In this document: in pieces, positions 1 through 3,568 of the stretch
Layout: the number at the start of each line of letters is the position of its first letter
How positions within the stretch are numbered: position 1 is the first letter of the stretch
Origin: an uncultured Gemmatimonadales bacterium
Lineage (GTDB): Bacteria; Gemmatimonadota; Gemmatimonadetes; Longimicrobiales; RSA9
DNA length: 64,000 bases
Direction of reading: 5' to 3'
Assembly (NCBI GenBank): GCA_963708135.1
Contig: OY970192.1
Coordinates: 5,216,001-5,280,000 of the forward strand
The notes under the pieces: model-generated
What the model was told of the DNA's origin: nothing
The model's input: only the letters and a program-made list of their open reading frames with translations
Database searches by the model: none
Made by a program: the position numbers and the translations under genes

Positions 1-55
1 GGCAGAACAGGAGCTGCTCGTGGCCGAACTCGGCGAGGGAATCGAAGAGCGGCAT
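1..55 (-). CDS. Glu/Leu/Phe/Val dehydrogenase (leucine dehydrogenase-like), N-terminal fragment running off the window edge
   Basis: ATG at 55 gives MPLFDSLAEFGHEQLLFC, resembling the 'F..M...GHEQVVFC' N-terminus of LeuDH; only 18 codons visible. Confidence 0.6.
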   Translation of the reverse strand, partial: MPLFDSLAEFGHEQLLFC

Positions 56-266
56 CCGGAGGCCCGAGGGGAAAGAGGATCGTCGCGCATAATGCAACCG
101 AGGCCGGGGGCGGGACAAGAATCTGCGCCGAACGCATGGCCTGCGCCCCACACGCCAAGTCCCTATATTGGCCTCCCCTCCCGCGCCCGCCGGAGGGTAC
201 ACCCGCAGGCAGAGCCGACCCGAACCCCCGAGAGCCATGAGACACCCTGTGTCAACCCCCCTGTGT

Positions 267-1514
267 TCAAGCAGCCGCCGCGGTGGGTTCCGCGGGGGTG
301 AAGAAGGGGATAGCCCGTCCGTGTCGGGAGGGGTCGTAGGTGGACCGATTGTGCCAGCAGCGCCACAGCACGCGGACCCAGGCTCGGGCGAGGATTCGGA
401 TTGCGTGCGGGTGATCGCAGCCGCGGGCACGGGCGCACTTGTAGACGGCGGCGGCCCAGGGGTGGGCATGGCGGGAGTTGTCCGCCCAGGTGGTGAGGGC
501 TTGTCGCAGGCGCTTGTTGCAGGCGAAGCGGCAGGCGACGCCGCGATGCTTGCCGGAGCTGTGCGTAACGGGGGCGACGCCGGCTTCGGCGGCGAGCTGG
601 GCGTCGGTGGCGAAGCGGAGCCGGTCGTCGCCGAGCTCGGCGAGAATCTGGGCGGCATTGATGGTGCCGGTGCGGGGGAAGGACTTCAGGATCTCACCGT
701 CGGGATGCTGCGCGAGGTGAGCGGCGATGAGCCCGTCGAGCTCGCGGATCTGAGCCACGAGAGGGCGGAGGACGGCGACCAGGGAACGGACGAGCTGACC
801 TTTGGTCTCGCTCTCGAGCTCGGCGGCCTGCCCTGCGGGGGCGGAGCGGAGCCGCTCGAGGAGCTGATCGACCGGCCGGCGGCCGCAGTAGGCAGTGCGC
901 TTGAGGAATCGTTCGAGGCGCTTGGGCCCGAGGCGGGCGGCGCTCTCCGGGGTGGGGTAGGCGTCCAGGAAATCGAGGGCGATCGGGCTATCGACATCGG
1001 CGAAAATGGCGGCAGCGCCGGCCCAGAAGCTGTCGAGCAGGCTGCGGAGCTGATTGGCGAGCTGGACGCGGGTCGCGACCAGGTCATCGCGGGTGCGAAC
1101 GGCGGCGCGAAGCGCCTTGGTGCGATCGGAGGGGACCCGGAGCGGCCGGAATCGATGCCCATCGGTACGCAGGACGTCGGCGAGGATGTAGGCATCACCG
1201 GGATCGCTCTTCCCCGGAGCCGCGGCGTAGCGGGGCCGGGTGGCCTTGAGGGCGTTCGGGTGGATCGGAACGACCGGGAAGCCGGCCTCGACCAACGTAT
1301 CCACCAGAAGTCCGGACGGCCGCTCGATGGCGATGGGCAGCTGCGCCGGAGAGCTGACGCGACGCAGGCGCCGGATCAGCTCACTCAGCCCACCGGCCGT
1401 GTGAGGGATGGTGAACGCGTCAACGAGGGCGCCGCTGAGATCGAGCACACAGACGTCATGCTTGTCGCTGGCCCAGTCAATTCCGACGAGGTAGCTTGGA
1501 TCCAGTCCTTCCAC
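267..1514 (-). CDS. IS110 family transposase/recombinase (DEDD RuvC + Tnp domain)
   Basis: VGIDWASDKHD, AIE, GKSDPGDA and AGVAPVTHSSGK motifs; GGAGG RBS before GTG. Confidence 0.95.
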   Translation of the reverse strand: MEGLDPSYLVGIDWASDKHDVCVLDLSGALVDAFTIPHTAGGLSELIRRLRRVSSPAQLPIAIERPSGLLVDTLVEAGFPVVPIHPNALKATRPRYAAAPGKSDPGDAYILADVLRTDGHRFRPLRVPSDRTKALRAAVRTRDDLVATRVQLANQLRSLLDSFWAGAAAIFADVDSPIALDFLDAYPTPESAARLGPKRLERFLKRTAYCGRRPVDQLLERLRSAPAGQAAELESETKGQLVRSLVAVLRPLVAQIRELDGLIAAHLAQHPDGEILKSFPRTGTINAAQILAELGDDRLRFATDAQLAAEAGVAPVTHSSGKHRGVACRFACNKRLRQALTTWADNSRHAHPWAAAVYKCARARGCDHPHAIRILARAWVRVLWRCWHNRSTYDPSRHGRAIPFFTPAEPTAAAA

Positions 1515-1544
1515 GCCTCACCTCCGAGCAGAGATTCACTCCCT

Positions 1545-1760
1545 CGCTCCGGCGTTGGAAGGTCTCACCGATCGCTCACTGAAAGGCGCTCTCGGCTTCA
1601 GGTGCCGTGGCGCTACACCCTGTGGTCGGTTGGGGCCTTCCACGCCGGGCAGGGGAGCGGGTCTCATGCGGGCCGTCGAGCGGCAAGCGACGCTGGCTCT
1701 CCCTACCCGGACGCCGAAGCACTTCTCTTGAGCGGCGCGAATCTACGCCCCGCTGAGGGT
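1545..1760 (-). ncRNA. Putative IS110 bridge RNA (target-binding loop about 1710-1645, donor-binding loop about 1646-1551)
   Basis: Two stem-loops whose internal segments match the element junctions: 1615-1624 = 242-251; 1573-1581 = revcomp of 1770-1778; 1661-1668 = revcomp of 236-243. Confidence 0.8.
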
Positions 1761-1771
1761 AAGGTGCACCA

Positions 1772-3568
1772 GTGAGCGCGCACCCTTCCCGACCCGAAGG
1801 TCCGTCCTCCTTCTCCGCTTCCCTGTCCGGCGTGGAGCCGACGGCGCCCGTGGCCGGCGCGGCGGCCGGCGCGGCGCTGCCGCCGGCGCGCCTCGACCGG
1901 CGCCGCTTCATGGCCTACTTCTCGGCGGCCGGTCTCGGGGGGACGCTCTTCCCCGGCGTGCTGTGGGGGAAGGCGCAGGGACGGGAGGTGACGAAGGAGA
2001 TGGTGAAGGATGCCGAGGCGATCGCGGACCTCGACCTCACCGATGAAGAGATCGAGATGATGCTGGACGGGTTGAACCGGAACCGGCAGGCCTATGACGC
2101 CATCCACGCGGTGACGCTGGCGAACGCGGTGGCGCCGGCGGTCCACTTCGACGTCCGACCCCCCGGGACGGAGGTGGCGACGGGCCCCGACGTGGTGCGG
2201 CCGGCGGCGCCGGGGAAGCTGCGCCGCCCGGCGAACCTCGAGGAGGTGGCGTTCTGGCCGGTGACGCACCTGGCGGAACTGGTGCGGACGAAGCAGGTCA
2301 CCTCGACCGAGCTGACGAAGATGTACCTGGGCCGGCTGAAGAAGCATGGGGACCGGCTCCAGGCCGTGATCACGCTGACGGAGGAGCGGGCGCTCCGGCA
2401 GGCGGCGCAGGCGGACGCGGAGATCGCGAAGGGACGCTACCGCGGCCCGCTGCACGGCATCCCCTGGGGCGGCAAGGACCTGCTGGACGTGAAGGGGTAC
2501 CGGACCACCTACGGCGCCAAGCCCTACGAGAACCAGACGCTCGACGACGACGCCACGGTGGTGCAGCGGCTCGACGCCGCGGGCGCCGTGCTGGTGGCCA
2601 AGCTCACGCTGGGCGCCCTCGCCATGGGCGACGTCTGGTTCGGCGGCAAGACTCGCAACCCCTGGGATCTCGAGCAGGGCTCGAGCGGCTCCTCCGCCGG
2701 GCCGGCGGCGGCCACGGTGGCCGGGCTCGTCGGCTTCAGCATCGGGACGGAGACGCTCGGCTCGATCGTCTCGCCGTCCACGCGCTGCGGCGCCTCGGGG
2801 TTGCGCCCGACCTTCGGCCGGGTGCCGCGCACGGGCGCCATGGCGCTCTCCTGGAGCATGGACAAGATCGGCCCGATCTGCCGCGCCGCCGAGGACTGCG
2901 CGCTGGTGCTGCGCGCGATCAAGGGGCCGGACGGGCAGGACCTCACGGTCTACGACGCGCCGCTCCGCTACGACGCCTCCGTCAAGCCGGCCGACCTGCG
3001 GATCGGCTACTACAAGAGCGCCTTCGAGGGCGACTACCCGAACCGGGAGTTCGACCAGAAGGCGCTGGACGTGCTGCGGGACCTGGGCGCCCGCCTCATC
3101 CCCTTCGAGCTGCCGACGACGTACCCGCTCGGCGCGCTGCGCATCATCCTGAACGCCGAGGCCGCCGCCGCCTTCGACGAGCTCACCCGCAGCGGCCGCG
3201 ATGACCTGCTGGTCAGCCAGGACAAGAACTCGTGGCCGAACTCGTTCCGCACCGCGCGCTTCATCCCGGCGGTCGAGTACCTGGAGGCGAACCGGATCCG
3301 CACGCTCATCATGAAGGAGCTGCACGAGGCGATGGACCCGATCGACGTCTTCGTCTCGCCGTCGTTCCGCGGCAGCACGCTGCTCATGACCAACCTGACG
3401 GGGCAGCCCACGGCCGTGGTGCCCAGCGGCTTCACGGACAAGGGGACGCCCGTCAGCATCTCGTTCGTCGGCAAGCTGTGGGGGGAGGGCGCCGCAGTCG
3501 AGCTGGCGCGGGCCTACCAGGCGGCGACGGACTTCAACACGAGGGTGCCGCCGCTGTTCGCCGTGTGA
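1772..3568 (+). CDS. Amidase signature family protein, Tat-like leader, GatC-like N-terminal segment
   Basis: GPLHGIPWGGKD, GSSGSSAG, GTETLGSIVSP motifs; RRRFMAYF twin-arginine-like motif. Confidence 0.9.
   Translation: MSAHPSRPEGPSSFSASLSGVEPTAPVAGAAAGAALPPARLDRRRFMAYFSAAGLGGTLFPGVLWGKAQGREVTKEMVKDAEAIADLDLTDEEIEMMLDGLNRNRQAYDAIHAVTLANAVAPAVHFDVRPPGTEVATGPDVVRPAAPGKLRRPANLEEVAFWPVTHLAELVRTKQVTSTELTKMYLGRLKKHGDRLQAVITLTEERALRQAAQADAEIAKGRYRGPLHGIPWGGKDLLDVKGYRTTYGAKPYENQTLDDDATVVQRLDAAGAVLVAKLTLGALAMGDVWFGGKTRNPWDLEQGSSGSSAGPAAATVAGLVGFSIGTETLGSIVSPSTRCGASGLRPTFGRVPRTGAMALSWSMDKIGPICRAAEDCALVLRAIKGPDGQDLTVYDAPLRYDASVKPADLRIGYYKSAFEGDYPNREFDQKALDVLRDLGARLIPFELPTTYPLGALRIILNAEAAAAFDELTRSGRDDLLVSQDKNSWPNSFRTARFIPAVEYLEANRIRTLIMKELHEAMDPIDVFVSPSFRGSTLLMTNLTGQPTAVVPSGFTDKGTPVSISFVGKLWGEGAAVELARAYQAATDFNTRVPPLFAV

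Follow-up and report, generated by a model that had tools for sequence, protein, structure and literature searches.

A 64,000-nucleotide (nt) stretch of contig OY970192.1 from an uncultured Gemmatimonadales bacterium, called the window below, carries close to its first letter an insertion sequence of the IS110 family on the minus strand. Two questions are raised by this locus: does the left end of the element encode the bridge RNA by which such elements would choose their target, and what does it mean that the element sits directly behind a start codon of its host? To the first question a confident answer can be given. The element very probably belongs to the IS110 subgroup, and its left end encodes a bridge RNA of ~200 nt, composed of a 5' hairpin, a target loop and a donor loop. 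The assignment is supported by the protein, the layout and the pairing scheme, all of which, as read from the DNA, fit an IS110-subgroup bridge RNA. The element appears to be active or recently active, and we infer its transcription, circle formation and catalysis. The answer to the second question is more guarded.

The element and its recombinase

240..1776, minus strand: the complete IS110-family element with its two CT cores (the four copies differ by 0-2 bases and cease to be identical at CT/CACTGG and GGGTGT-CT/)
267..1514, minus strand: recombinase gene, 415 amino acids, GTG start with GGAGGT before it (Pfam and NCBIfam matches; catalytic residues align with IS621)

The element measures 1,535 bp from core to core. 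Its four genomic copies, with 0-2 base differences among them, all end at identical bases (left G-CT/CACTGG, right GGGTGT-CT/CATG), and in this way the borders were fixed independently of the guides. At the left border host YG is followed by CT and CACTGGTGC, and at the right border the element sequence CACAGGGTGT is followed by CT and host CATG, the CT core dinucleotide standing at both junctions in 4/4 copies. The left end is 262 nt and the right end 25 nt long; terminal inverted repeats are absent (ends CACTGG... and ...GGGTGT). The 10-mer CACAGGGTGT occurs twice in the 64-kb window, once in the right end and once in the donor loop, against 0.05 occurrences expected, and none of 100 shuffles gave two.

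The gene product matches DEDD_Tnp_IS110 (2.4e-37) and Transposase_20 (2e-17) of Pfam, and NCBIfam NF033542, 'IS110 family RNA-guided transposase', with 204.7 bits against a cutoff of 140. A profile built from 18 relatives matched the solved recombinases IS621 (8wt6, E 4e-18) and ISCro4 (9t56, E 8.8e-17). In these comparisons D13, E64, D104, D107 and S320 align with D11, E60, D102, D105 and S241 of IS621 (chain numbering offset +2), and all five are invariant in the 18 profile relatives. Judged from its sequence, the recombinase is a DEDD/Ser enzyme, with a RuvC-like DEDD domain and a Tnp domain that carries the predicted catalytic Ser.

Relatives used for comparison

A DNA search with the left end gave no match in the genomes of 60 relatives (61 were searched including the own genome, 53 of them at least 90% complete). 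The relatives were taken from a protein-guided scan, one genome per species, which yielded 80 loci of 54-89% protein identity from many phyla. The upstream alignment contained up to 290 nt before the gene from 75 loci and the window; four loci with <200 nt upstream were omitted and L013, a 5'-truncated match, was not entered. The post-stop alignment held 71 loci and the window, nine loci with too little sequence being omitted.

The ends were filtered independently of the guides. A right end had to contain T[TGC]GAC[AT] and a left end had to be gap-free with xT-[CT]A, which kept 64/72 right ends and 61/76 left ends, and visibly misaligned loci were dropped before counting. Guide counts were made on the columns homologous to each guide, end and flank after the removal of duplicates; the relatives are not independent, and these counts describe a pattern, not a probability. 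The RNA alignment, A1, comprised 58 sequences that are <93% alike.

The Rokubacteria group is among the dropped left ends, its left end reaching past the 290 nt taken. In L019, L020, L022, L023, L025, L026, L027 and L081 (mostly Rokubacteria, with a few other metagenome-assembled genomes) the left end is >290 nt long and carries extra conserved upstream sequence.

Structure of the bridge RNA

1732..1753, minus strand: 5' stem-loop of the bridge RNA (fold prediction; position as in the IS621 layout in the excerpts of PMC11208160)
1645..1710, minus strand: target-binding loop, with outer stem 1710-1702/1653-1645, inner helix GAG/CTC and distal hairpin 1684-1672 (two-sided changes)
1551..1646, minus strand: donor-binding loop, with an outer stem, inner CCGA (1629-1626)/TCGG (1571-1568) and distal GCGC (1613-1610)/GCGC (1589-1586) (covariation)

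The fold of the left end beats 200/200 shuffles, with a z-score of -3.5. From alignment A1, RNAalifold predicted 29 pairs, 24 of them with compensatory changes. When a hand-written structure of 32 pairs was laid over the 58 sequences, 90.8% of the cells were paired, compared with 39-48% when the partners were slid by 1-3 columns; two-sided changes were found in 26/32 pairs, and 0/500 shuffles reached the observed values. A covariance model of homologous left ends had been proposed earlier as a check. Built from A1, it finds exactly the four genomic copies with 158.1 bits each, the window sequence being among its training rows.

The target loop is ordered as outer stem, short inner helix, left target guide (LTG), distal hairpin, and right target guide (RTG) with its handshake bases; two-sided changes occur in 12/12 outer or inner pairs and in 3/4 distal pairs. 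The donor loop follows the same plan: outer stem, inner CCGA/TCGG helix, left donor guide (LDG), distal stem, and right donor guide (RDG) with its handshake bases. Here 6/7 outer and 3/4 inner pairs show two-sided changes and the distal stem is nearly invariant.

An earlier sequence-only reading of this DNA had described two stem-loops with guide-like motifs, and all of its motifs are present at their places on the minus strand. The target stem CCGGGTAGGG/CCCTGCCCGG lies at 1710-1701/1654-1645 and encloses CATGAG (1668-1663), followed by AC (1662-1661). The donor stem GGCGTGGAAGG/CCTTCCAACGCC, at 1646-1636/1562-1551, encloses CACAGGGTGT at 1624-1615 and CAGTGAG at 1581-1575, the latter followed by CG at 1574-1573. 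As originally written, both stems make use of GG at 1646-1645; covariation gives these two bases to the first stem, and in this detail the earlier drawing has to be amended.

Guide sequences and their partners

1686..1694, minus strand: LTG, AGCGUCG plus core CU (homologous columns equal the left flank in relatives)
1663..1671, minus strand: RTG, CCGCAUG plus core AG; CAUGAG pairs with the flank of this copy (pairing in relatives)
1615..1624, minus strand: LDG, CACAGGGUGU, identical to the 10 nt of the right end that adjoin the core (repeat count and relatives)
1575..1581, minus strand: RDG, CAGUG plus core AG (33/33 Watson-Crick at all seven positions)
1775..1776, minus strand: left CT core (in all four copies; pairs with the LTG core in 61/61 and the RDG core in 33/33 relatives)
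1770..1774, minus strand: right donor arm CACTG, with which the left end begins (complement of the RDG, 33/33 Watson-Crick at each of five positions, with 1-3 pair types)
242..255, minus strand: right end with TTGACA (255-250) overlapping the left donor arm CACAGGGTGT (251-242) (-35 box conserved across junctions)
240..241, minus strand: right CT core (in all copies)
236..239, minus strand: right target arm CATG, which is the host ATG on the plus strand (237-239) (at 4/4 copies)

Each guide follows its DNA partner through the relatives. The RDG pairs with the left end without exception, using up to three pair types per position among 33 elements. Positions 2-9 of the LDG equal the right end in 29-31 of 30-31 elements; positions 1 and 10 do so in only 17/31 and 19/31. 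For the RTG, pairing with the right flank holds at positions 5-7 in 54/55, at position 4 in 47/54, at position 3 in 40/52 and at the core in 52-55/55, and is at background level at positions 1-2. The LTG equals the left flank at position 7 in 58/60 and at position 6 in 43/56 relatives, and its core does so in 61/61; positions 2-5 match in about half of the relatives and position 1 in 6/48. The core itself covaries (CT, AT, GT), and the core bases of LTG, RTG and RDG track the AT or GT cores. For every one of the four guides the observed match was higher than in 2,000/2,000 label shuffles; the match in that test is diluted because the count still included misaligned loci.

Covariation between guides and junctions in homologs had been named beforehand as a point on which the assignment could be refuted, and it is present, base by base, for RDG, LDG, RTG and LTG. 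A left target guide had been seen only weakly, as "GCG"; homology replaces this by the defined 7+2-nt guide AGCGUCG+CU at 1694-1686. An LTG with a bulged U (CAGCG-U-CGCU) fits the four own sites better and was rejected, since the homologous columns of the relatives pair without a bulge.

Handshake pairing

1661..1662, minus strand: target-loop handshake guide AC (donor position 7 in 32/32 and position 6 in 31/32; cognate target position 7 in 0/60)
1573..1574, minus strand: donor-loop handshake guide CG (first base with target position 7 in 58/60; cognate donor position 7 in 0/32)

In IS621, according to the excerpts of PMC11208158, strand exchange is followed by pairing of the two nucleotides immediately 3' of RTG, and likewise of RDG, with positions 7 and 6 of the non-cognate DNA, and handshake bases that pair with their own DNA block the reaction. 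The proposal that the present element follows the same rule is borne out by the counts of both dinucleotides, which pair with the non-cognate DNA and at the cognate position 7 never. In the window AC pairs with donor T7 and G6, and CG with target G7 and C6 (T6 in one of the four copies). The first donor-loop handshake base forms C:G in 52 and G:C in 6 cases with target position 7, and pairs with LTG position 7 in 62/62; the second base is looser (31/56).

Target choice in this genome and proposed mechanism

The target predicted from the guides is AGCGTCG-CT-CATGCGG. The real left sites of the four copies are GTGCGCG, CATCGTG, GAGCTCG and TGCCGCG, and the real right sites CATGGCT, CATGGGC, CATGCGG and CATGCCG. 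In the right arm 4-7 of 7 positions match at the four sites; in the left arm positions 6-7 match in 7/8 cells. Since only the last two bases of the LTG and the right arm match, the four sites are half-matches. They share YG-CT-CATG and nothing else on the left, which agrees with the loose specificity focused on ATGAG that had been suspected from this one copy. To judge from the excerpts of the IS621 preprint (bioRxiv 10.64898/2026.08.31.748434), the four insertions look like the half-match insertions described there.

The following course of events would be expected. The element would be excised as a circle, by analogy with IS621, and its ends would thereby abut into the donor site ACAGGGTGT-CT-CACTG; this circle junction would put the conserved TTGACA 18 nt from the conserved left-end hexamer. 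The bridge RNA would then link two DNAs on a recombinase tetramer, with LDG and RDG holding the donor and LTG and RTG holding a target of the form (AGCGT)CG-CT-CATG(CGG). Strands would be exchanged at the CT core, and the handshake dinucleotides AC and CG would pair with the incoming non-cognate strands.

In run X1 a 917-nt contig (window 1778 onward) passes through the left end and the flank CG into DNA unlike any of the four genomic flanks. It is possibly a fifth insertion site in the sampled population.

Junction promoter and transcripts

1761..1766, minus strand: hexamer CACCTT, a candidate -10 box, or on the plus strand AAGGTG, Shine-Dalgarno-like, 5 nt before the regenerated GTG (fixed position)

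The possibility that circle formation creates a promoter could be followed in the computed junctions. TTGACA lies at 255-250, and its spacer to CACCTT (1766-1761) is 8+2+8 = 18 nt, as had been predicted. Of 41 distinct computed junctions, 29 have TTGACA as the -35 box and 10 have TGGACA, and a hexamer stands 18 nt downstream in 41/41 (CACCTT 17, CACCCT 7, TACCTT 5, others); its position is fixed 10 nt from the core in 61/61 left ends. The -35 box and the spacing are conserved; the candidate -10 box is poor, CACCTT agreeing with TATAAT at only 2/6 positions.

One DNA run holds the element (share 0.93); it is possibly the source sample and hence not independent. The bridge-RNA region is matched by two contigs from the RNA libraries of two studies, one of 176 nt (1517-1690; 3 other letters, 4 gaps) and one of 194 nt (1483-1670). 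They stem from relatives, the libraries may hold DNA and the region is the best conserved one at the DNA level, and as a sign of bridge RNA transcription they are at most a faint hint.

Several results weigh against the bridge RNA assignment. An Rfam scan of 1-3000 at E <=10 returned four chance-level matches and no bridge-RNA family. A phmmer search with the single recombinase sequence against solved structures (E <=10) gave no relevant match, and because no solved relative was obtained in this way the profile search was used. At the four genomic sites positions 1-5 of the left arm match in only 3/20 cells, the perfect cognate 16-mer is absent from the genome, and unoccupied near-sites are present in it, 9 with two mismatches and 96 with three. 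The junction hexamer matches TATAAT at only 2-3/6 positions in all 41 junctions, and a sigma-70-like promoter was not found in the linear element. Among the contigs examined there was no transcript, circle or empty site of this organism; no contig joins the right end to the left end or skips the element, but contigs drop rare forms, so they are uninformative on circles and empty sites.

Insertion at start codons

1772..3568, plus strand: displaced host gene, an amidase of 598 amino acids, now starting with the left-end GTG (Pfam Amidase 1.4e-75; junction sequence)

Read on the host strand, the right flank of the element gives ATG and the core AG. At three of the four own copies, long outward open reading frames (ORFs) start exactly at the junction: the amidase, an RnfD/NqrB-family protein of 337 amino acids (Pfam match from residue 11, profile position 2) and a protein of 219 amino acids with a weak V4R match only, so that a clear Pfam family is found in two of the three (Amidase, RnfD/NqrB).

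The start-codon test in the relatives took in 38 distinct sites for which the junction was unique and the left flank measured 300 nt or more. At 27/38 sites the reading frame set by the junction start codon has no stop for 100 codons or more, or up to where the locus ends, compared with 17/38 in a control frame. Of these 27 junction ORFs, 24 have a Pfam family at E <=1e-5, and in 17 the Pfam domain runs from profile position 1-3 within the first 24 residues; in these 17 the junction is therefore a true gene start. Five of the 27 are ambiguous and three are without a family.

The antisense reading frame

237..1775, plus strand: antisense frame of 512 codons, from the host ATG across the element to a TGA overlapping the regenerated GTG (1772-1774) (open in 36/42 relatives)

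The left end starts with CT-CAY, and the left junction read on the host strand is RTG-AG, in frame with the displaced ORF (in the window GTG AGC GCG), with AAGGTG 5 nt upstream of the regenerated start. Within these same bases a TGA closes the frame opened by the host ATG at the far end of the element (GTGA overlap), and this frame covers the bridge-RNA gene too. Among 42 distinct elements it runs through without a stop in 36, and neither remaining antisense frame does so in any; in 37/42 it begins with ATG, GTG or TTG from the host flank.

By a slight preference we read these features as a device of this clade: the RTG would be kept at CAUGAG because the element lands on ATG-AG start codons, and with a stop-free antisense frame and a regenerated start the insertion therefore need not silence the displaced gene. 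The ribosome-binding site and ATG of the host would open the stop-free frame across the 1.5-kb element, the bridge-RNA gene included. Translation would end in the stop that overlaps the start regenerated by the left end (GTGA or ATGA; TAATG in one subclade), and the displaced gene would be re-initiated by translational coupling and protected from polarity. That the whole of a widespread bridge-RNA clade (Gemmatimonadota, Acidobacteriota, Alphaproteobacteria, Actinomycetota and others) is built to insert without silencing its target, with the phase conserved and not the peptide, is put forward more tentatively, as an idea of which we are not quite persuaded.

Some observations count against this clade-specific part. 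The antisense frame is interrupted in 6/42 elements and begins without a standard start codon in 5/42, and its product has no family match in the family searches. The fourth own copy adjoins an ORF of only 20 codons, and 2/27 junction ORFs of the relatives begin inside a domain. Base composition has to be considered as well: in this genome of 72% G+C, 622 of 945 likely-coding stretches of 415 codons (66%) have an open antisense frame. Antisense openness over the recombinase gene weighs little, because it is mostly a by-product of base composition.

From this baseline comes the explanation that survives best beside ours, namely that the antisense frame has no function and results from the high G+C content, the start-codon sites being due only to the frequency of CATGAGCG at gene starts. 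It would also account for a product without a family and for a frame that differs between subgroups across the target-loop region. We consider it unlikely, although it retains some weight, as the lengths and stops of the non-coding segments speak for a constrained phase. The right-end length is 1 mod 3 in 42/42 elements over six lengths (4-37 nt), and the left-end length is 1 mod 3 in 51/57 distinct left ends, which come in 14 lengths (217-274 nt); a counting error of one at contig edges accounts for four of the six exceptions, which gives 55/57 once corrected. The 5'-hairpin segment, the distal hairpin of the donor loop and the spacer before the gene each vary in length by steps of three. Of 57 left ends, 50 lack a stop in this frame, the counts for the remaining antisense frames being 5 and 27. 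Overlap of the stop with the host start occurs in two registers, RTGAG and TAATG. Gene starts, moreover, are enriched: they are found at 17/38 sites of the relatives against 42 of the 889 YGCTCATG sites of this genome, the latter being judged by a rough ORF proxy. As the cause of the 3-periodicity an ORF on the sense strand of the left end was also considered and ruled out, the sense frames being stop-free in only 3, 0 and 20 of 57.

The subgroup of the window carries compensated +1/-1 shifts relative to the majority, by which the phase is kept and not the peptide. In the window (1753-1586) the 5'-hairpin segment is 66 nt and the donor distal loop 22 nt long, the majority having 56-80 and 8-44 nt (both 2 mod 3). 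In the Actinomycetota loci L082, L084, L085 and L086 the core is AT at the left junction and GT at the right junction; the host ATG is formed there by left-flank position 7 and the core, and the antisense frame ends with a TAA overlapping it (TAATG).

A second alternative, that the frame encodes a functional protein of its own, hed-like and expressed from host signals, beyond serving as a path for ribosomes, seems to us improbable. IS900 is described in the excerpts of PMC8141618 with such an ORF, hed, and the host-flank start codons noted above would suit it; the compensated shift, however, alters the peptide opposite the target loop and keeps the phase, and there is no family match. Hardly any credence is left for the view that the left end is a leader controlling recombinase expression or a protein-binding end, with the end matches as subterminal repeats and not guides: no RNA of this organism was observed and the donor loop shows the strong conservation expected of a protein site, but RTG, LTG and the donor-loop handshake base covary with a host flank that is different at every site, which an element-internal repeat for that reason cannot explain, and the strand logic (5' side equal to the top strand, 3' side complementary) is as solved for IS621 in the excerpts of PMC11208158.

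The bridge RNA itself is a further natural and fully readable example, from a poorly studied phylum, of a kind that is already known, and its long RTG and clear handshake pair are useful as a comparison for engineering. In the antisense part the guide, the end sequences and the length of the RNA gene appear tuned so that the element can occupy a start codon without cutting ribosomes off from the host gene. If the reading of an insertion that spares its target gene is true, it explains why the RTG has hardly departed from CAUGAG in different phyla whereas the left guide drifts, why the donor arm starts with CAY, and what purpose the long-puzzling hed-type ORF of IS900-like elements has. It would also mean that translation of the opposite strand constrains an RNA gene.

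Comparison with known elements

The target of IS621, an element of E. coli, is a repeated extragenic element, whereas the target here is a start codon. The two recombinases are distantly related (profile match only), that of the present element having 415 amino acids and the solved IS621 chain 328 residues. The LDG is longer here (8-10 nt) and does not cover the core, AG following it where the donor has CT; the RTG is also longer (up to 7+2 nt), the donor loop has the extra inner helix CCGA/TCGG, and the -10 box is poor. The likeness to IS621, as far as the excerpts of PMC11208160 and PMC11208158 describe that element, lies in a recombinase with DEDD and a catalytic Ser, the CT core and a -35 box in the right end. 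It extends to the long left end that encodes the 5' hairpin, target loop and donor loop in that order, and to handshake dinucleotides that follow RTG and RDG on the 3' side and find their partner at position 7 of the non-cognate DNA. With the half-match work on IS621 (excerpts of bioRxiv 10.64898/2026.08.31.748434) the four sites share pairing across the core and one arm, here the right target arm; right-target-only events were unscorable in that work, where the native RTG has 4 nt, whereas here there are four natural sites and no assay.

The IS1111 group, with its seekRNA, likewise has a DEDD transposase and a short RNA from a non-coding end that picks the target (PMC11187229). The IS1111 RNA comes from the long right end, which follows the gene and has subterminal inverted repeats (PMC11187229), whereas here the RNA lies upstream of the gene. 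The long RNA-bearing right end by which the IS1111 subgroup is recognised is not found in the present element, the right end of which has 25 nt.

IS900 of Mycobacterium avium subsp. paratuberculosis, in the excerpts of PMC8141618, shares with the present element the IS110 family, an element-spanning antisense ORF and a target at translation initiation signals with CATG. Its hed ORF is described there as spanning the whole element without a start or ribosome-binding site of its own, and the IS900 target motif contains CATG (PMC8141618). By this description the IS900-like features found here are the element-spanning antisense ORF without its own start and the insertion at host translation initiation signals, and the hed ORF is the closest precedent of the antisense frame. 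The elements differ in their motif, which is CATGNNNNNNTCTCCTT for IS900 in the same excerpts, the present element landing directly after ATG-AG with the CACCTT-like hexamer inside its left end. A start codon regenerated over a stop, as found here, is not mentioned for IS900 in the excerpts of PMC8141618. Full-text searches on IS110 bridge RNAs with start codons and antisense frames, and on hed of IS900, subscription journals being outside their coverage, gave no paper that links the two.

Further observations

The recombinase frames of the relatives L046 and L082 are each interrupted by a single in-frame stop codon within the matched stretch, owing perhaps to decay of the copies or to sequencing errors. 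A stretch of 36 nt (G000:C1:2058224-2058259, L005) is 86% identical to a part of the recombinase gene and may be a remnant or a distant second gene of the IS110 type.

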